NCBI GenBank assembly: GCA_028873125.1
Contig: JAGWMQ010000003.1
Coordinates: forward strand, 15,295-79,294
DNA from: Verrucomicrobiota bacterium
GTDB lineage: Bacteria; Verrucomicrobiota; Verrucomicrobiia; Limisphaerales; UBA11358
Direction: 5' to 3'
DNA: 64,000 nucleotides
The translations under genes were made by a program, and so were the position numbers. The notes beneath the pieces are model-generated. The model was given only the letters and a program-made list of their open reading frames with translations. It was not told where the DNA came from and did no database searches. Positions 6,047 through 47,470 of this stretch are shown piece after piece. Position 1 is the first letter of the stretch. Every line of letters begins with the position of its first letter.

Positions 6047-6177
6047 AAAATTCCAAGTTCCAAATTCCAAGTTCCAAAGAAAATTCAAGCTCCAAGCTCC
6101 AAACCTTTGCCGAAGTATTTTCCGAACTTGGAATTTGGAGCTTCTTTGGAGGTTGGAAATTGGAATTTGGAACTTGA
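6047..6177 (+). repeat. ttccaag-periodic long imperfect hairpin, copy 1; fills the kdsA|kdsC intercistronic gap
   Basis: Left arm is aattccaagttccaaattccaagttccaaagaa... Right arm is ...ttctttggaggttggaaattggaatttggaactt. The arms are reverse complements around a loop of about 23 nt. Confidence 0.85.
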
Positions 6178-13765: not shown

Positions 13766-14318
13766 TTGACGCGAATTAACGCGAATTTTTGAAGCGGAAC
13801 CATGAGTGAACTGCTTTATAAGGATGAAGTGTTTAAGCTCATCGGTTTCTGCATGGAAATTCACCGCGAGTTGGGCAAAGGCCATGACGAGGTGATTTAC
13901 AAGGACGCCCTTGTCGTCGAGTTGCAGCGCGCCAAAATTCCTTTCGCCCGCGAGCTAAAATATGAAGTGAGGTACAAGGGTGTGATTCTGCCTCACCATT
14001 ATCAGGCCGACTTCGTGGTGTGGAATAAAATCCTTTTTGAAGCCAAGGCTGTCGAGACGTTGACCGAGGCATACGTCAAACAAGTTCTAAATTATCTGGC
14101 CGCCTCGAAACTTGAACTCGGCTTGCTCGTCAACTTCGGCGCCGATTCACTGGAATGGAAGCGGGTCGTCTTAAGCAGATCCAAGCCACAGCCATTGCCG
14201 AAAGATTTTCGCCTATGAAGCACAAGACCTCGATGCGGATTACGCTAATTATCGCGAATCTCTTTTCGTGTTTGTGTGTTCCTCTTAATTCGCGTCAATT
14301 CGCGTAATTCGCGTCAAA
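13766..14318. mobile_element. Small cassette: aattcgcg-type inverted repeats bracketing a GxxExxY gene
   Basis: Left end ttgacgcgaattaacgcgaatt (13766-13787). Right end ttaattcgcgtcaattcgcgtaattcgcgtcaa (14286-14318). The ends are near reverse complements. The interior has visibly lower GC than the flanks. Confidence 0.55.
13802..14218 (+). CDS. GxxExxY family protein (PD-(D/E)XK nuclease-like fold)
   Basis: Motif GKGHDEVIYKDA (G-x-x-E-x-x-Y); ADFVVWNKILFEAK (D...E-x-K-like); LNYLAASKLELGLLVNFG. Confidence 0.8.
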   Translation: MSELLYKDEVFKLIGFCMEIHRELGKGHDEVIYKDALVVELQRAKIPFARELKYEVRYKGVILPHHYQADFVVWNKILFEAKAVETLTEAYVKQVLNYLAASKLELGLLVNFGADSLEWKRVVLSRSKPQPLPKDFRL

Positions 14319-14326
14319 AATTTGCC

Positions 14327-17300
14327 ATGTCTGAAATCTCCAAAGCCTACGAACCGCAGTCCGTCGAGGAAAAGTGGTATCAATTTTGGCTCGACCAGAA
14401 ATGCTTCGTCGCCCATCCGCAATCGCCCAAGCCCGCCTATTCCATCGTCATCCCGCCGCCGAACGTCACCGGCGTGCTCACCCTGGGCCACGTCCTCAAC
14501 AACACCATCCAGGACATCCTCGCCCGCAAGGCGCGCATGGACGGCAAGGAAGTCCTCTGGCTGCCCGGCACCGATCACGCCGGTATCGCCACCCAGACCG
14601 TCGTCGAGAAGGCGTTGAAGAAGGCGGGTGAAATCAAACACCGCGACGACTTGGGCCGCAAGAAATTCCTCGAACGCGTCTGGCAATGGAAGGAAAAGCA
14701 CGGCGGCATCATCATCCAGCAATTGAAAAAGCTCGGCGCGTCGTGCGATTGGACACGTGAACGGTTCACGATGGACCCGGAGTATTCGCGCTGCGTGCAG
14801 AAGGTGTTCGTGGAGCTTTACAAAAAGGGCCTCATCTACCGCGGCAAACGCATGGTCAACTGGTGTCCGGCTTCGCTCACCGCGCTGTCCGACGAGGAAG
14901 TGGTGATGAAGGAGCAGAAAGGCTCGCTCTATTACTTCAAAGTCGAGGTTGTTGACATGGGGAGCGCGACCGTCCCGGTTGCAGATTCTGGCGTCTCGCC
15001 AGAATCCTCTTCGCGCGCGGGAGATCCGATTGGCGCGACGCCAATCGGAGCAGGCGAGACGCCCCCGCTCCGCGGAGAAAAAATTTTCCTGACCATCGCC
15101 ACGACGCGGCCGGAGACAATTCCCGGCGATACCGCCCTGGCCGTGAATCCGAAGGACCCACGCTACGCCAAATTCATCGGCAAACACGCCATCCGACCGT
15201 TACCTGCTGAATTACCGCGCGAGCAAAAGCTGATTCCCGTCATCGGCGACGAGCACGTGGATTTTGAATTCGGCACCGGTGTGCTCAAGGTGACGCCGGC
15301 GCACGACAAGGCGGACTTTGAAATTGGCCAGCGGCATAATCTGCCGCAGATTGACATCATGCATCCCAACGGCCACATGAACCAACTGGCCGGAAAGGAT
15401 TTGAACGGGCTGGACCGGTTCAAGGCGCGCAAAGTTGCTTTGGAAAAACTCGCGGAGCTTGGCGTTTTCGAAAAGGAGGAGCCATACACCAATAACGTCG
15501 GCTTCAGCGAGCGCGCCGACGTGCCGATTGAACCGCGCCTGAGCGAGCAATGGTTTTTGAAATATCCGAGCGTGGAGAAAGCGAGGAATTGCGTGGATTG
15601 GGGGAGCGCGACCGTCCCGGTTGCCAATTCCGGCGTCGCGCCGGAATCTTCGCCAGACAAATTTAAGGTTGCCGAACAAGCATTGGACGCGACGCCCAAT
15701 GCAGCACGCGAGACGCGTGCGCTCCCCGATAAAATGCGCTTCCACCCACAGCGCTGGGCGAAGGTTTATGACCATTGGATGGGCGGTTTGCAGGACTGGT
15801 GCATCAGCCGCCAGCTTTGGTGGGGACACCGGATTCCGGTGTGGAAGAAAATGTTTGGAGGAGGAATTCCGAATTCCAATCCGTTAAGCGCAATTGAGCA
15901 AAAGGCACAGTTTGATTCCGTGGAAAAACTACAAATCGTGAAAGGCATGAAAGAAATCCGATCCACGGAAACATCTTCTGCAAGTATGTTCGGGCAAACT
16001 TTCTTCAAGTTCGAGAAATCTATTTTTGAGAACGAACATTTGAATTTACCCACGACGACCACGACAGTTGTTACAGCTTTAACTTATGATGCACACGGTG
16101 CCCACGCGTTGAACGACGCAGGTTTTGTCCAAGACCCCGACGTGCTCGACACCTGGTTCAGTTCCTGGCTCTGGCCGTTTGCCACGATGGGCTGGCCGGA
16201 GCAGACCGAGACGTTGAAAAAATTTTATCCGACCACCGATCTCGTCACCGGGCCGGACATCATTTTCTTCTGGGTCGCGCGCATGATCATGGCCGGCTAC
16301 GAGTTCATGGGTGAGATGCCGTTCCGCAACGTCTATTTCACCGGCATCATCCGCGACAAGCAGGGGCGCAAGATGTCCAAGAGCCTCGGCAATTCGCCCG
16401 ACCCGCTCGACCTCGTCGGCAAATACGGCGCCGACGCGCTCCGGTTCGGCACGATGCGCAGCGCGCCGCTGGGCCAGGACATTTTGTTCGACGAACAAAA
16501 CGTCGAGTTTGGCCGCAATTTCTGCAACAAGCTCTGGAATGCCTGCCGCTTCCGCCAACTGCAGGGCGGCGAAGTGCAGGGCGAAATCGTCCCGCAACTG
16601 CTCACGAGCGACGACAAATGGATTCTGCTCAAGCTCGACGCCGCCATCCGCGAAATCAACGCCGCGTTCGCCGAATACAAATTCAGCGACGCGACGGCGA
16701 CGCTCCACCGCTTTTTCTGGAGCGAGTATTGCGACTGGTATGTCGAGGCGAGCAAGGCGGCGTTGGGGAACGCGCGCGTCCCGCGTGCGGATTCCGGCGT
16801 CGCGCCGGAATCTTCGTCTGACAACCATAACCTTGAAGAACGAGCATCGGGCGCGACGCCCGACGCGACAACCGGGACGGTCGCGCTCCCCGAAAAATTT
16901 GATGTGCGCACGGCGAACACGCTCGCGGTGATTGATTTTGTGCTCTCGCACACGTTGCGGCTGTTCCATCCGTTCCTGCCGTTCATCACCGAGGAATTGT
17001 GGCACGGGATGGGTTACGCCGACAACATGCCGGACGACCAGGGCGGCCGGACCATCATGTTCGCGCCGTGGCCGAAGCCGCTGGACGACGATTTCAAGGC
17101 GCACTACGGCTTGAGCGAACAGGATGAAGAATTCATCGAGGCGCGGAACGCATTGATTGCACTAGGCCGCAATCTGCGCCGCAACGCCAACATTCCGGCG
17201 AACAAAAAGGTGAAATTCATCTTCAAACCCAAGGGCCGGGCCTCGGCGAGCGACCTCGGGGTTTTGAAGTCCCTGCTCAATGCCGAAACCGTCGAGGTGA

Positions 17301-17587
17301 ATCCCCATTTTCAGCCCGCGAAAAATGTACTGGCGGCTCGCCACAAACTCGGCGAACTCCTTCTGCCGCTCGAAGGGTTGATTGACGTGGAAGCCGAAAC
17401 AGCGCGGCTGGAAAAGGAACTGGATAAAATCGAAGCAGAAATCGCGAAGGTCGAGCAGAAGCTGGCCAATCCGAATTTTACGCGGAAAGTCCCGCCGAAT
17501 GTTTTGGCGGAGCACCGGCAACGCCTTCTGGACTGGCTGGGCAAACTCGCGCACGTGAAATCGGCGTTGGCGGCGCTGCAAAATTGA
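14327..17587 (+). CDS. valS: Valine--tRNA ligase carrying four in-frame insertions
   Basis: PPPNVTGVLTLGH (HIGH), TTRPETIPGDTA, WCISRQLWWGHRIP, KMSKSLGN, and a C-terminal coiled coil. 1086 aa. Confidence 0.95.
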   Translation: MSEISKAYEPQSVEEKWYQFWLDQKCFVAHPQSPKPAYSIVIPPPNVTGVLTLGHVLNNTIQDILARKARMDGKEVLWLPGTDHAGIATQTVVEKALKKAGEIKHRDDLGRKKFLERVWQWKEKHGGIIIQQLKKLGASCDWTRERFTMDPEYSRCVQKVFVELYKKGLIYRGKRMVNWCPASLTALSDEEVVMKEQKGSLYYFKVEVVDMGSATVPVADSGVSPESSSRAGDPIGATPIGAGETPPLRGEKIFLTIATTRPETIPGDTALAVNPKDPRYAKFIGKHAIRPLPAELPREQKLIPVIGDEHVDFEFGTGVLKVTPAHDKADFEIGQRHNLPQIDIMHPNGHMNQLAGKDLNGLDRFKARKVALEKLAELGVFEKEEPYTNNVGFSERADVPIEPRLSEQWFLKYPSVEKARNCVDWGSATVPVANSGVAPESSPDKFKVAEQALDATPNAARETRALPDKMRFHPQRWAKVYDHWMGGLQDWCISRQLWWGHRIPVWKKMFGGGIPNSNPLSAIEQKAQFDSVEKLQIVKGMKEIRSTETSSASMFGQTFFKFEKSIFENEHLNLPTTTTTVVTALTYDAHGAHALNDAGFVQDPDVLDTWFSSWLWPFATMGWPEQTETLKKFYPTTDLVTGPDIIFFWVARMIMAGYEFMGEMPFRNVYFTGIIRDKQGRKMSKSLGNSPDPLDLVGKYGADALRFGTMRSAPLGQDILFDEQNVEFGRNFCNKLWNACRFRQLQGGEVQGEIVPQLLTSDDKWILLKLDAAIREINAAFAEYKFSDATATLHRFFWSEYCDWYVEASKAALGNARVPRADSGVAPESSSDNHNLEERASGATPDATTGTVALPEKFDVRTANTLAVIDFVLSHTLRLFHPFLPFITEELWHGMGYADNMPDDQGGRTIMFAPWPKPLDDDFKAHYGLSEQDEEFIEARNALIALGRNLRRNANIPANKKVKFIFKPKGRASASDLGVLKSLLNAETVEVNPHFQPAKNVLAARHKLGELLLPLEGLIDVEAETARLEKELDKIEAEIAKVEQKLANPNFTRKVPPNVLAEHRQRLLDWLGKLAHVKSALAALQN
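14959..15071. repeat. Intragenic structured palindromic element, copy A (in valS)
   Basis: Starts ggggagcgcgaccgtcccggttg. Hairpins at 14985-15005 (attctggcg/cgccagaat) and 15026-15048 (ccgattggcg/cgccaatcgg). The right end is degenerate. Confidence 0.8.
15601..15727. repeat. Intragenic structured palindromic element, copy B (in valS)
   Basis: ggggagcgcgaccgtcccggttg ... attccggcgtcgcgccggaat ... gcattggacgcgacgcccaatgc ... cacgcgagacgcgtgcgctcccc. Confidence 0.85.
16765..16891. repeat. Intragenic structured palindromic element, copy C (in valS)
   Basis: ggggaacgcgcgcgtcccgcgtg ... attccggcgtcgcgccggaat ... tcgggcgcgacgcccga ... caaccgggacggtcgcgctcccc. The right end is the exact reverse complement of the left end of copies A and B. 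Confidence 0.85.
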
Positions 17588-17598
17588 ATTTCGCAGGA

Positions 17599-18399
17599 AT
17601 GAAGGCTTTTTCAATCAAACAGGCGCTGGCCGCCGCCATTCGAGCCGCGCGCGCCGCCGGAAAAGTCATGCGCGACAACTGGCGGTTGCCCAAGCGCGTC
17701 AAGCTCACCGACGCCCACGACATCAAACTCGAACTGGACGTGCGCTGTCAGAAGCTCATCGAGAGCGTTCTGCGCGCCGCGTTTCCGCAAATCCCCCTGC
17801 TCGGCGAGGAGGGCGATTCGGGCAACGTGGATGCCGAACGCCGCTGGGTGGTGGACCCGATTGACGGCACGGTGAATTATTTCTTCGGACTGCCGCACGC
17901 CGCGGTTTCGATTGCATTGCAAGCCCGCCGTCCGCCGTCCGCCGCCCGCCGTCACGAAACGTTGCTCGGTGTGATTTACGACCCGTTCACCGACGAGCTT
18001 TGGACGGCGACGCGCGGCGGCAAAACGAAGCTCGATGGCCGCGTCGTCCGGGTCAGCACTCATTCGCGCCTGAGCGAGGCTGTGATTGCGATGGGATTTT
18101 CCAAGAGCAAGGAAAATTTGGAGAAAAGCCTGCCGCATTTGAACCGGCTGGCGCGGCGCGCCAAAAAAATCCGCATCCTGGGTTCGGCGGCGCTGGAACT
18201 GGCCTACGTGGCCTCCGGCCGGCTCGACGCTTACATCGAACGCACCATCAATCTCTGGGACGTGGCGGCAGGCGGGCTGATGGTGGAGTGTTCGGGCGGG
18301 GAATTTTATCTGAAACCGCTGCCGGACGGACGCTTTCGCATGTGCGCCGACAACGGAAAACTGCGACGTAAACTGCAACTGGGAAGTTTGTTGAGATGA
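17599..18399 (+). CDS. Inositol monophosphatase family protein (SuhB-like)
   Basis: LLGEEG, WVVDPIDGTVNY, WDVAAGGLMV. A TTG at 17584 overlaps the valS stop and is an alternative start. Confidence 0.85.
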   Translation: MKAFSIKQALAAAIRAARAAGKVMRDNWRLPKRVKLTDAHDIKLELDVRCQKLIESVLRAAFPQIPLLGEEGDSGNVDAERRWVVDPIDGTVNYFFGLPHAAVSIALQARRPPSAARRHETLLGVIYDPFTDELWTATRGGKTKLDGRVVRVSTHSRLSEAVIAMGFSKSKENLEKSLPHLNRLARRAKKIRILGSAALELAYVASGRLDAYIERTINLWDVAAGGLMVECSGGEFYLKPLPDGRFRMCADNGKLRRKLQLGSLLR

Positions 18400-18424
18400 A
18401 AGGCAGCGACGCCGCGCCGCGGCG

Positions 18425-19144
18425 TCAGGCCGGCGCAGCGCGCCGCCCCTGGCATTCGTGGCCTTCAAGAAACTTTTTCACCTTTTCCAGCGCCCGCGCG
18501 CGGTGGCTGATCCGGTTCTTGACCTCCTCGCCCAACTCGGCAAACGTCTGTTCAAAACCGGCCGGCACAAACAGCGGATCGTAGCCGAACCCCTGGCTCC
18601 CGCGCGGCGCGAACAGGATCCGGCCTTCGCAAACGCCGTCGAAAATCTGCGGTTCAAATTCATCGTCATAACAAACCGGCGAGGCGGCCTCCACTTTTCC
18701 GAACGACACCGGCACCAGCGCCGTGACGCAATGGAACCGCGCGGTGCGTTTTTTGGTCGGTACGTCCTTGAGCAGGCGCAACAACTCGGCGTTGTTCTCC
18801 GCATCGGGCGAATTGCCGGGACGGCCCGAGTCCAGGGCGGCAAAGCGCGCGGAATGGACGCCGGGCGCGCCTTGGATCGCGTCCACTTCCAATCCTGAAT
18901 CGTCGGCCAGAACGAATGTGCGGTGGACGACGGGTGGCGGGTGGCGCGAGGCCGAAAGCCAATGCGCCAGCCCGACAGCTTTCTTCGTCGCGTTGCCGGC
19001 AAAAGTCGAAGCGTCCTCCACAACCTTCGGCGCCTCGGGGAAATGGTCAAGCGTGAGCAGCTCAAATTGCCCGCCCAGCATGGCATGGATTTCACCCGCT
19101 TTGTGGGTGTTCCGCGAGGCAATGAACAGCACGATGTCAGACAC
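18425..19144 (-). CDS. rdgB: dITP/XTP pyrophosphatase (RdgB/HAM1)
   Basis: ASRNTHKAGE, LADDSGLEVDAIQGAPGVHSARFA, GFGYDPLF, ISHRARAL. Confidence 0.9.
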   Translation of the reverse strand: MSDIVLFIASRNTHKAGEIHAMLGGQFELLTLDHFPEAPKVVEDASTFAGNATKKAVGLAHWLSASRHPPPVVHRTFVLADDSGLEVDAIQGAPGVHSARFAALDSGRPGNSPDAENNAELLRLLKDVPTKKRTARFHCVTALVPVSFGKVEAASPVCYDDEFEPQIFDGVCEGRILFAPRGSQGFGYDPLFVPAGFEQTFAELGEEVKNRISHRARALEKVKKFLEGHECQGRRAAPA

Positions 19145-19255
19145 GGGCGGGAAAGCTTGCGAATCATGGGCCGGCAGGCAACACTATTCGGATAAATTGT
19201 ATCTGCCGGCGCGGCGGCGGCGCGCAGATTCTGAACACGCCAAGCAAATGAATTT

Positions 19256-22042
<2,787 letters not shown>

Positions 22043-42838: not shown

Positions 42839-43308
42839 GATCCGGCGGTGGTGTTGAGCGTCTGCGAATCCGCCAGCGTGCTCATTTGCACGGAATAGTT
42901 GATGCCTTGGATCGAAAAGGACACCTGGGCGGTGAGTTGCCGCATCAGGGGATCCTCCGGCCAGTCCAGGCTGGTCAGCGCCCAGCGGAATTGCCGCCCG
43001 CCGTCGCTGATCGTTCCGTTTTGTGTTCCCACGTTCCAATTGGTCGTCACAATGCTTTGGTTGAGCACCTCGTCGGCGACGCGCGCCGCCTGGCCCTTGC
43101 GGGCGGCGACTTCGCCGGCCATGGCGGCGGTGTGCAGCGCCTCGACGGCTGCGGGAATGACGATGGCCAGCAACAGCAGTGCCGCCAAAACCTCCACCAG
43201 TGTGAAGGCAGAAAAGTGACCTGCGACACATGGCGGGTGGCAGGCATTCCTGCCGCGTGTCACTCGCCACTTGTCCCCGGTCACTTTACTGGCTGTTCCG
43301 AATTTCAT
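42832..43308 (-). CDS. gspI: Type II secretion minor pseudopilin GspI-like
   Basis: FTLVEVLAALLLLAIVI prepilin segment; small size. An alternative GTG start lies at 43284. Confidence 0.65.
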   Translation of the reverse strand: MKFGTASKVTGDKWRVTRGRNACHPPCVAGHFSAFTLVEVLAALLLLAIVIPAAVEALHTAAMAGEVAARKGQAARVADEVLNQSIVTTNWNVGTQNGTISDGGRQFRWALTSLDWPEDPLMRQLTAQVSFSIQGINYSVQMSTLADSQTLNTTAGSP

Positions 43309-45588: not shown

Positions 45589-45716
45589 GAAGTTCCAAGT
45601 TCCAAGTTCCAAGTCCCAAGTTCCAAGGAAAATCCAAGCTCCAAGTTCCAAGACTTGCCGATGCCAATTTGAATTTTGGAGCTTGGGGCTTCTTTGGAAC
45701 TTGGAACTTGGAATTT
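45589..45716 (-). repeat. ttccaag-periodic long imperfect hairpin, copy 2; fills the gspE|gspF intercistronic gap
   Basis: On the coding (minus) strand: aaaattccaagttccaagttccaaagaa ... ttggaacttggaacttggaacttctga-ATG. Same orientation relative to transcription as copy 1. Confidence 0.85.
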
Positions 45717-45721
45717 TCATT

Positions 45722-47470
45722 TCATCTCCCCAACGCGGCGCCGGTCGGCGCCAAGCTTGCCGTCGCATCCAGCGTTTCATTCCGGGTCACGCGCGCCACT
45801 TCCTTGGCGGTGGTCACGCTCAAGACTTCCTCGACGGTGGTGATGCCCAGCCGCACCAGCCGCCAGCCGTCTTCGGCCAGCGTCTTCATGCCGGCGCGGC
45901 GGGCGGCGTCGCGTATCTGGTCGGTCGAGGCGCTTTTCAGGATCAACCGCCGGATTTCATCGTCGCTGTCCATCCACTCGAAAATGGCGTGCCGGCCGAA
46001 GAATCCGGTGTTGCGGCACTCGCGGCAGCCGATCGAGCGGTAAATTGTCGCGTTGGCCGGCAGCCCCGCCTGCGCCTTGAAGGCCTGCGCCGTCGGCGAA
46101 TGGTCCGGCTGTTTGCAATGTCCGCACAGCACGCGCACCAGGCGTTGTGCCAGCACGGCTTCGAGGGAGGAGGCGACCAGATACGGCTCCACGCCCATGT
46201 CCACCAGCCGGGTGAGGGCGCCGGGCGCGTCGTTGGTGTGGAGCGTGGAAAAGACCAGGTGGCCGGTCAGGGAGGCCTGCACGGCGATCTGCGCCGTCTC
46301 GGCGTCGCGGATTTCGCCGATGAGCACCACGTCCGGGTCGTGGCGCAGGATCGAGCGCAACCCGCGCGCGAAGGTCAGGCCGGATTTTTCATTGACCTGG
46401 ATCTGGTTGACGCCCTTGAGTTGATACTCCACCGGGTCTTCGATGGTGATGATTTTGCGAACCGAGTCGTTGATGGCGTTGAGCGCGGTGTAAAGCGTCG
46501 AGGTCTTGCCGCTGCCGGTCGGGCCGGTGACCAGGATGATGCCGTGCGGCAGCTCGAGGACGCGCTGGAAACAATCCAGTTCGCGCCGGTCCATGTCCAG
46601 TTCCTTCATGCCGCGCAGGGTGGCGTTCTGCCGCAGCAACCGCATCACCACCGCCTCGCCATGCAGCATCGGTATCACCGAAACGCGGATGTCCACCTCG
46701 GCGTCCTCGATGCGCACCTTGATACGGCCGTCCTGGGGCAGGCGTTTTTCGGCGATGTTGAGGTGGCTCAAAATTTTCACGCGCGAGACGATGGCCGGCT
46801 GGAATTGTTTCAATTGCCCCGGCACCGGCACGTCCTGCAACACGCCGTCAATCCGGTAGCGGATGCGGAATTCGTCCTCGAAGGGCTCCAGGTGGATGTC
46901 CGAGGCGCGCAACTCGATGGCGTCCTTGAGGACCTGGTTGACGAAACGGATGATGGAGGCCTCGTCTTCGGCGGCGGAGTCGAGATTGGTGTCCTCGGCG
47001 TTTTCGTCCACGAACTGAAAGGACTTGTCCTCCTCCAGCGTGCCGATGGTGTCGGCGCCCACGCCCAGGCGTTTTTTCATTTCCCGTTGAATCGCTTCGC
47101 TGGAGGCGAGGACGGGCTTGAGGTTCAAGCCCGTCAACGTTTTCAGGGCGTCCAACCCCTGGGTGGCGAAGAGGCGGCTGGTGGCCACTTCCACCGTGCC
47201 GTTCAGTCGCCGAAGGGGCAGCAATTCTTCCTTGAGAAGGATACGGGCGGGAAAAAGGGAGAGAAGCTGACGGTCCGGCTCCACGTCGTCCAGCGTCGTG
47301 TAGGCCAGATCATACTCGCCGGCCAGCCAGCGCAGCACGTCCTCCTCGCCTCGCAATACGAGCTTGGAGGCGGCCAGGGCTTCGGCGTCGGCCGCCGAAA
47401 GTTGCCGGGCCGCGATCATGCGTTCCAGCAACGGCCGCGGCGGGGTTTCCTGGACGTCAGACGGACTCAT
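45722..47470 (-). CDS. gspE: Type II secretion ATPase GspE
   Basis: N-terminal MshEN-like domain; Walker A GPTGSGKTST; Asp/His boxes; tetracysteine CGHC...CRECRNTG. Confidence 0.9.
   Translation of the reverse strand: MSPSDVQETPPRPLLERMIAARQLSAADAEALAASKLVLRGEEDVLRWLAGEYDLAYTTLDDVEPDRQLLSLFPARILLKEELLPLRRLNGTVEVATSRLFATQGLDALKTLTGLNLKPVLASSEAIQREMKKRLGVGADTIGTLEEDKSFQFVDENAEDTNLDSAAEDEASIIRFVNQVLKDAIELRASDIHLEPFEDEFRIRYRIDGVLQDVPVPGQLKQFQPAIVSRVKILSHLNIAEKRLPQDGRIKVRIEDAEVDIRVSVIPMLHGEAVVMRLLRQNATLRGMKELDMDRRELDCFQRVLELPHGIILVTGPTGSGKTSTLYTALNAINDSVRKIITIEDPVEYQLKGVNQIQVNEKSGLTFARGLRSILRHDPDVVLIGEIRDAETAQIAVQASLTGHLVFSTLHTNDAPGALTRLVDMGVEPYLVASSLEAVLAQRLVRVLCGHCKQPDHSPTAQAFKAQAGLPANATIYRSIGCRECRNTGFFGRHAIFEWMDSDDEIRRLILKSASTDQIRDAARRAGMKTLAEDGWRLVRLGITTVEEVLSVTTAKEVARVTRNETLDATASLAPTGAALGR

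Follow-up and report, generated by a model that had tools for sequence, protein, structure and literature searches.

A dispersed family of palindromic repeats read in frame within valS and other genes of Verrucomicrobiota

How can the coding sequence of an aminoacyl-tRNA synthetase accommodate three palindromic repeats, and to what kind of element do such repeats belong? The question is raised by a 64-kb stretch of DNA from a Verrucomicrobiota bacterium (assembly GCA_028873125.1, contig JAGWMQ010000003.1, positions 15,295 to 79,294; hereafter the window), in which the valS gene (14327-17587, + strand) encodes a valyl-tRNA synthetase (ValRS) of 1086 aa and hosts three in-frame copies of one repeat. 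The valS product is 100% identical to the NCBI entry 'MAG: valine--tRNA ligase [Verrucomicrobiota bacterium]' (P0001; protein search). Copy A (113 nt, 14959-15071, +) lies at the entry to the connective peptide 1 (CP1)/editing domain, directly 5' of the codons for FLTIATTRPET; copy B (127 nt, 15601-15727, +) lies before KMRFHPQRW; and copy C (127 nt, 16765-16891, +) follows CDWYVEASKAAL, in a loop of the helical anticodon-binding domain. The left ends read GGGGAGCGC in copies A and B and GGGGAACGC in copy C, and the right ends read GCGCTCCCC in copies B and C and, in a degenerate form, CCCCCGCTCCGC in copy A. The evidence presented below indicates, with a probability that we put at about 0.75, that these segments are non-autonomous palindromic repeats resembling repetitive extragenic palindromes (REPs) and REP doublets forming hairpins (REPINs), native to Verrucomicrobiota and tolerated in permissive surface loops.

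An element is built from two half-units, each of about 50 nt and inverted relative to the other, which are separated by a variable centre of about 10-30 nt. Using an nhmmer profile and a covariance model of the half-unit, the latter run on the window without filters, exactly eight half-units, that is four elements, were found in the 64 kb. The covariance model placed the half-units of copy A at 14959-15008 (+, 64.6 bits) and 15024-15073 (-, 46.9 bits), those of copy B at 15601-15650 (+) and 15678-15727 (-), and those of copy C at 16765-16814 (+) and 16842-16891 (-). The fourth element, copy D (112 nt, 20746-20857, +), was detected by both methods and lies in frame in an MgtA-like gene (19256-22042, +) encoding a Mg2+-translocating P-type ATPase, the homologues of which are named magnesium-translocating P-type ATPase. 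All four copies are open in the frame of their host and free of stop codons, and their G+C content is 66-78%. In copies B, C and D, GGGG starts at the third position of the codon before the insert, and from its second G onwards the GGG...CCC stretch measures 126 nt, or 42 codons, in B and C and 111 nt, or 37 codons, in D; the insert peptide starts with G-S/N-A and ends with A-L-P. An earlier note on this DNA had reported the three valS copies with the coordinates and ends given above, including the degenerate right end of copy A, and had read them through in frame; translation of the host open reading frame (ORF) gave the same peptides. It had also held that the lengths of the elements are not multiples of three and that flanking bases, such as a shared 'gaAaaaat tail', must belong to the insertion. 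Neither argument is needed: B, C and D are of exactly 42, 42 and 37 codons and require no additional flanking bases, and the tail is partly host sequence. At site B its AAA ATG codes for the conserved K-M pair of KMxFHP, and relatives that have no insert possess this pair as well.

The window ValRS was aligned with the Thermus thermophilus enzyme (1GAX; E=1e-190). The residues of 1GAX that flank the inserts are 205/209 for copy A, 363/379 for copy B and 658/661 for copy C, and the loops of T. thermophilus ValRS at these sites have 3, about 15 and 2 residues respectively. The earlier note had placed all three copies between conserved ValRS blocks, at points where E. coli ValRS has only short variable loops; the alignment with 1GAX bears out the placement and shows short loops at all three points. 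Sites A and B were placed from this sequence alignment and not from a structure model: the AlphaFold2 (AF2) model of the whole ValRS, made with 110 close homologues, was poor (mean predicted local distance difference test score, pLDDT, of 56) and usable only in its C-terminal half. In that half, site C is an unstructured stretch (residues 814-857, pLDDT <50 at 818-846) between two modelled helices.

Read from its outer end, a half-unit comprises the tag 5'-GGGGAGC, a hairpin 1 with a 7-bp stem and a 3-nt loop, 1-3 nt, and a hairpin 2 with a 3-4-nt loop and a 9-10-bp stem ending in GGCG/CGCC (in copy B, hairpin 1 is 15608-15624 and hairpin 2 about 15627-15648). The two halves of an element are incompletely complementary, their hairpin-2 stems being different. 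Allowing up to 3 mismatches, three occurrences of the 24-nt left end were found in the window, against an expectation of 0 from dinucleotide shuffles, and the window elements form much more stable folds than shuffled sequences do, with z-scores of -3.9 to -8.5. Covariation was measured in 143 distinct half-units from the window and other genomes. In this set, 92.1% of the stem cells were paired, compared with 72.5% in shuffles and 34-52% in slid controls; double-sided stem changes numbered 449, compared with 125 in shuffles; 12 of the 17 stem pairs showed changes on both sides; and the covariation score was 0.50, compared with 0.14. The tag GGGGAGC was present in 143 of 143 half-units, and CGTC was encountered only within some loops. 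Across all loci, 136 half-units were paired and 13 were solo. Within an element, hairpins 1 and 2 usually carry matching loop triplets (CCT, TCT/TCC, ACT, GCT/GCC, TCG), and these triplets define subfamilies. The peptide variants T-V-P-V, G-V-P-P, R-V-P-R, A-A-P-A and P-A-P-G found in ValRS relatives are translations of alternative complementary stems; the conserved entity is therefore the nucleic acid hairpin and not the peptide.

When each half was read from its outer end, the stem positions that are not Watson-Crick pairs were G.T in 102 cases and A.C in 29 (p=1e-10). The favoured single strand is therefore opposite in the two halves, a polarity that argues for single-strand hairpins recognized end by end and against a structure selected in the mRNA; on these grounds an mRNA-level structure was rejected as the selected form. 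A direct repeat of 4 nt or more flanked none of 122 elements, and shorter repeats were at or below chance. The palindrome runs on into the flanks, with TCC before GGGG and GGA after CCCC, or the variants TCT/AGA and TTC/GAA. Rfam 15 gave no match at E<=1 in the region 14000-21500 and none at gathering score across the window. An intein or intron was rejected on reasoning alone, as the segments are of 37-42 codons, in frame, stop-free and devoid of conserved splicing blocks.

The same sites were compared in the 120 closest ValRS proteins (66-81% local BLASTP identity), aligned to a profile built from the shortest members. Insertions concentrate in four loops, three of which are sites A, B and C of the window. 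Site A was empty in 57 of the 120 relatives, site B in 16 and site C in 21, so presence/absence polymorphism exists at all three. By a rough count with regular expressions, the GGGGAGC family occupies site A in about 20 relatives, site B in about 36 and site C in about 18. Other repeat families fill site B in about 68 relatives, and REP dimers tagged GTAG fill site C in about 41; at the DNA level, the other families in the ValRS loops include at least two of GTAG/GTGG-tagged REP dimers (GTGGCAGCCGACGTGAG... and GTAGGACAGGCTTCCAGCCTGTC...). Site B, before KMxFHP, was thus occupied in 104 of 120 relatives, and it accounted for 6 of 21 distinct intragenic matches. The fourth hot spot (profile position 603, window about 16560-16580) is empty in the window; relatives carry GTAG REP dimers there, and P0116 carries a fourth GGGGAGC copy. 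Many relatives also show odd, short inserts (for example VGSADFP or GSGGSATGE), possibly the remnants of elements since lost. To judge from these sequences, the phenomenon is broader than the earlier note had seen, with many unrelated repeat families in the same ValRS loops. Similar ValRS inserts occur in many independent JGI, ENA and NCBI assemblies, and an assembly artefact was rejected.

The number of GGGGAGC elements in valS differs between relatives, from none in P0114 to 2 in P0014, 3 in P0004 and 4 in P0116; by locus, L124 carries no element and L121, L122 and L123 carry 3, 2 and 4. Between P0004 and P0014, identity is 76% over valS, falling to 65% at the third positions of conserved codons, and reaches 98% in the site-B elements; the two copies of P0014 are 96% identical to each other. 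The site-B copy of the window is only 69% identical to the site-B elements of P0004 and P0014 and belongs to another subfamily; occupation of one site in different genomes is therefore no mark of simple orthology. Between copy A and the copy at the same site in P0004 the identity is 85%, and the hairpin-2 stems are shared, as vertical descent would allow. The copies of the window are 66-79% identical to each other and look old, given this divergence and one decayed terminus. An insert like copy D was found in only 2 of the 120 closest ATPase homologues, and an 894-aa homologue that is 85% identical lacks it.

Another part of the window valS is specific to its lineage: a segment of about 90 aa (15836-16135, codons about 504-603) with 39-46% G+C, compared with about 59% for the gene, stands where T. 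thermophilus ValRS has a stretch of about 25 residues (415-440). Relatives have unrelated sequences of 25-75 aa at this position, and in a few of them an LPD3 domain (PF18798) of about 170 aa is inserted either here or at site B. A Pfam search of the A+T-rich segment of the window found no domain.

Genomes, one per species, were scanned with a pattern requiring both ends of the element. The scan yielded at least 120 stretches and, among the matches listed, nearly all were from Verrucomicrobiota, the carriers including Chthoniobacterales, Udaeobacter, Opitutales, Limisphaerales, Verrucomicrobiae and the isolate Verrucomicrobium sp. BvORR034. The motif is present elsewhere in the phylum, in many orders and mostly as intergenic copies. 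One clearly non-verrucomicrobial match was listed, in a Polyangiales metagenome-assembled genome (MAG; L046); it is devoid of the hairpin pattern and is probably a chance fit to the end pattern. Genes in the sampled loci were called with a codon log-odds model trained on the long ORFs of the same loci, and 25 of 111 copies were in one open frame flanked on either side by coding sequence; a cruder gene caller placed 39 of 127 copies within genes. The remaining 69-77% lie at a median of 35 nt past the upstream stop codon and are enriched between convergent genes, which is the classical REP position.

Almost all in-frame copies (24 of 25) use the phase G-GGG-AGC, encoding G-S-A...A-L-P. Stop codons were rejected as the cause of this single phase, since all three phases are open in 75-85% of copies; a copy read in one of the other phases encodes a peptide rich in Arg and Cys, and selection at the peptide level would therefore be the simplest explanation. 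Distinct intragenic hosts in the sample were ValRS in seven cases (six at site B and one at site A) and UvrA in two; LeuRS, with a copy at the equivalent entry to the editing domain; PurL, MetH, a UbiD-family enzyme, a restriction-modification methylase and an MgtA-type ATPase; and the DNA polymerase III alpha subunit (DnaE), whose gene in L036 and in L068 has one copy in the region of the PHP domain and another near the C-terminal part. This would make the DNA polymerase III alpha gene, after valS, the second host with several sites. A pair of copies spaced about 2.33-2.35 kb apart was noticed in each of L036, L047 and L068, which are from Udaeobacter, Verrucomicrobiae and Chthoniobacterales MAGs; the host ORF was scanned in L036 and L068.

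Palindromes read through in protein-coding genes are a known phenomenon, described both for Rickettsia palindromic elements (RPEs) and for the intragenic REPs of Opitutus terrae. As summarized in two sources (PMC10969869, PMC3733652), RPE-1 and its relatives are palindromic repeats, many of them in frame in housekeeping genes (Ogata et al., 2000, 2002). The likeness lies in palindromes of about 100-150 bp that are placed in frame in unrelated housekeeping genes, read through and polymorphic between relatives; the window has four such in-frame palindromes, stop-free and 112-127 bp long. Unlike RPEs, the GGGGAGC family belongs to another phylum, has 66-78% G+C, is made of two inverted double-hairpin half-units with a GGGGAGC tag and has mostly intergenic members. 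The likeness is an analogy only, and homology in sequence would be implausible. Rickettsia genomes are A+T-rich.

A closer parallel exists within the phylum. Di Nocera et al. (2013; PMC3733652) described intragenic REPs, with the largest number in the verrucomicrobium O. terrae, in uvrA, dnaE2, aminoacyl-tRNA synthetase and helicase genes. Like these GTAG/CGTC REPs, the GGGGAGC elements are made of short hairpin units, often paired in inverted orientation, whose complementary stems exist in alternative forms; they lie mostly downstream of genes with a minority intragenic, and share host gene classes with these REPs (PMC3733652); GTAG REP dimers even sit in the very same ValRS loops of relatives. 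They differ from GTAG/CGTC REPs by the tag GGGGAGC, by two hairpins per half and by inserts of 37-42 aa instead of 7-30 (PMC3733652). The GGGGAGC family is absent from that article and its supplement, and our search of the literature for a GGGGAGC terminus or for in-frame palindromes in Verrucomicrobia found no description of it. The statement in the earlier note that nothing of the kind is described in this lineage therefore needs amending: it holds for the GGGGAGC family and not for intragenic palindromes as such, which were described in O. terrae as GTAG-tagged families. The same note had taken the segments for a mobile structured element, tolerated or domesticated as in-frame loops and analogous to RPEs; dispersal, covariation and presence/absence polymorphism speak for such an element, and nothing speaks for domestication, no sign of function having been found.

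With REPIN-RAYT systems, in which RAYT stands for REP-associated tyrosine transposase (Bertels and Rainey, 2011; PMC3116915), the family shares two inverted hairpin units around a spacer, imperfect hairpins with compensatory stem variation, the absence of target duplication and a wide conservation across lineages. Long vertical persistence of REPINs is reported in the RAREFAN preprint (bioRxiv 10.1101/2022.05.22.493013), and the wide range of the GGGGAGC family would fit what is stated there. In contrast with REPIN-RAYT systems, no RAYT flanked by the GGGGAGC repeat was found, the hairpin-2 stems differ, and a quarter of the copies are intragenic. A further likeness is to the terminal inverted repeats (TIRs) that flank RAYT-like 'TIRYT' genes and that the legend of Figure 9 in PMC3733652 describes as 'double palindromic' with a motif GGGGWSAS. 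The terminus GGGGAGCG is one position off this motif and the half-unit is a double palindrome; this resemblance is to a description in words only, the motif is inexact and no TIRYT gene is linked to a GGGGAGC element.

If the segments are REP/REPIN-like repeats, they would spread by a hairpin-dependent mechanism acting on single-strand DNA and catalysed in trans. Insertions that shift the frame, encode a harmful peptide or hit a structured region would be removed by selection, and gene-internal copies would survive when they are in frame, stop-free and encode a benign peptide rich in Gly, Ser, Ala, Pro and Thr in a permissive surface loop. Harmless places would then be the intergenic 3' regions and one benign phase within permissive loops of large enzymes, and the few such loops available in ValRS, LeuRS, DnaE and UvrA would therefore be colonized repeatedly. 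Repeated occupation by several families could reflect the scarcity of permissive loops, as suggested by the occupation of the equivalent LeuRS site. Resident palindromes may also attract new insertions, REPs being known targets of insertion sequences (PMC3733652), and homologous ends may allow gene conversion or overwriting.

A search for the mobilizing enzyme gave a single weak match when E. coli RayT was compared with all ORFs of the loci by phmmer. This match is a true RAYT according to NCBIfam (NF047646, 99.7 bits), and its score with Pfam Y1_Tnp is 13.1 bits, below the cutoff of 23. NF047646 is the only RAYT family found in the carrier loci, with Chthoniobacterales homologues in L126-L129. 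The genes, at 4578-5319 in L029 and about 2900-3700 in L126, L127, L128 and L129, are bracketed by inverted GTTCCCAAGTTGCACTTGGGAAC hairpins. NF047646 RAYT and GTTCCCAAGTTGCACTTGGGAAC form a classical REPtron of Chthoniobacterales, whose REP family is separate from the GGGGAGC family. No gene bracketed by a pair of solo half-units was found in about 1 Mb of loci and the window. We propose only tentatively that the mobilizing enzyme is a hairpin-recognizing HUH/Y1 (RAYT-like) transposase, a guess based on the lack of duplications, the conservation of the hairpins and the strand-polar wobble bias.

Several points weigh against the REP/REPIN-like interpretation. No cognate transposase or autonomous element was found in the loci, and NF047646 RAYT was rejected as a partner because the REP that flanks it is GTTCCCAAGTTGCACTTGGGAAC and not the GGGGAGC element. 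The GTAG/CGTC tag at the hairpin end, by which the described REP superfamilies are defined, is missing from the family. The share of intragenic copies (23-31%) is approximate, since the gene calls are home-made, and several intragenic matches are at the same ValRS site and are thus not independent. The window differs from the family average, as all four of its copies are intragenic and none is intergenic, whereas REPs are mostly extragenic and downstream of genes. From open frames alone, the inserts are inferred to be translated as extra loops. Lastly, the compensatory differences within coding copies may mean that the hairpins are selected, which a 'junk' reading does not predict, and intact hairpins in diverged intragenic copies remain unexplained by a strictly neutral view. 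Template switching at quasi-palindromes can produce compensatory changes without selection and is an alternative cause of the covariation.

It is doubtful, and yet conceivable, that the intragenic copies, rather than being passive fossils, belong to an active, long-lived repeat population that uses particular loops in large, essential enzymes (ValRS, LeuRS, DnaE, UvrA) as preferred, deletion-proof landing pads, having evolved a 'safe' phase, and that resident copies are replaced or homogenized to the current subfamily of each genome. The phase G-S-A...A-L-P would on this view be the same in either orientation, and the hairpins may be kept in place by selection. If this were true, essential genes would shelter selfish DNA and, again and again, give rise to new protein loops throughout the phylum.

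Four other explanations were weighed, and each is contradicted by at least one test. Hairpins acting in cis as an RNA or DNA structure, by ribosome pausing at domain boundaries, mRNA stabilization or protein binding, would account for intragenic hairpins kept intact through compensatory differences in copies only 66-79% identical, for the occupancy of ValRS site B (104 of 120 relatives, and 6 of the 21 distinct intragenic matches), and for the mostly intragenic occurrence of some subfamilies (hairpin-2 loop TCG). We find this improbable: the G.T bias has opposite polarity in the two halves and leaves one half with A.C mismatches on the mRNA, every site lacks an insert in T. thermophilus and in some of the relatives, unrelated sequences fill the same loops in other relatives, and the family is mostly intergenic and has no Rfam match. 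Selection for a Gly/Ser/Ala/Pro-rich linker, with DNA palindromy incidental, is the least probable of the four. The use of one phase in 24 of 25 intragenic copies when all phases are usually open, a linker-like peptide and the unstructured model of site C, the one confidently framed insert, agree with it; stem changes, however, alter the peptide (TVPV, GVPP, RVPR, AAPA, PAPG) while pairing is kept, about three quarters of the copies are outside genes, and nucleotides are 96-98% conserved, synonymous positions included, between genomes whose valS genes are 76% identical.

A classical miniature inverted-repeat transposable element (MITE) derived from an insertion sequence with a DDE transposase, and mobilized through its TIRs, would have the size of these elements (100-130 bp), their terminal inverted repeats GGGGAGCGC...GCGCTCCCC and their dispersed copies. 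It was dropped because target-site duplications, which accompany TIRs in DDE-type MITEs, were found in none of 122 copies; in addition, no longer element or gene-flanking solo ends were present in about 1 Mb of loci, and what is conserved, as in REPs, is a set of subterminal hairpins whose stems vary, making such an origin very unlikely. Immobile fossils, descended vertically from single ancient insertions in an ancestor of the clade and evolving in place with no present mobility, are highly improbable. Copy A and its P0004 counterpart share hairpin-2 stems and are identical to nearly the same degree as the host genes (79%), and the window copies are diverged, with one end decayed and no intergenic copy in 64 kb, all of which speak for this view. 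The same site nevertheless holds different subfamilies in different genomes, copies are 96-98% identical despite host genes only 76% identical, the MgtA copy is present in only 2 of 120 relatives, and the loops also harbour unrelated REP families.

Protein-coding palindromes were at first regarded as a peculiarity of Rickettsia. They are now found in free-living, G+C-rich Verrucomicrobiota, in a family that spans many orders; sampled ValRS relatives carry up to four inserts, and one particular loop holds a repeat of some kind in more than 85% of the 120. The multi-family colonization of ValRS loops, the near-exclusive phase and the wobble polarity appear to be new, as extensions of a known phenomenon and not as a new category. 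As a natural experiment, these inserts indicate where aminoacyl-tRNA synthetases, DnaE and UvrA have loops that can take 20-50 additional residues. They show a route from selfish DNA to variation in protein length and bear on how REP-like elements choose their targets and survive. They also inflate and fragment alignments of phylogenetic marker genes in Verrucomicrobiota, and can pass for assembly errors or novel domains. The use of one phase and the strand-polar wobble bias are testable clues to the mechanism of mobilization.

The small gene directly upstream of valS (13802-14218, +) encodes a protein of the PD-(D/E)XK nuclease superfamily (PDDEXK_3, E=4e-34), and no link between this gene and the repeats was found. 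The window also contains two A+T-rich palindromic repeats, at 6048-6176 and 45590-45722, which are inverted arrays of the heptamer AAGTTCC/AAATTCC. Both are intergenic, directly after stop codons, and they probably represent another REP-like or terminator-like family. At 43206-43294 lies an inverted repeat of 40 nt, with 78% complementarity and a spacer of 9 nt.

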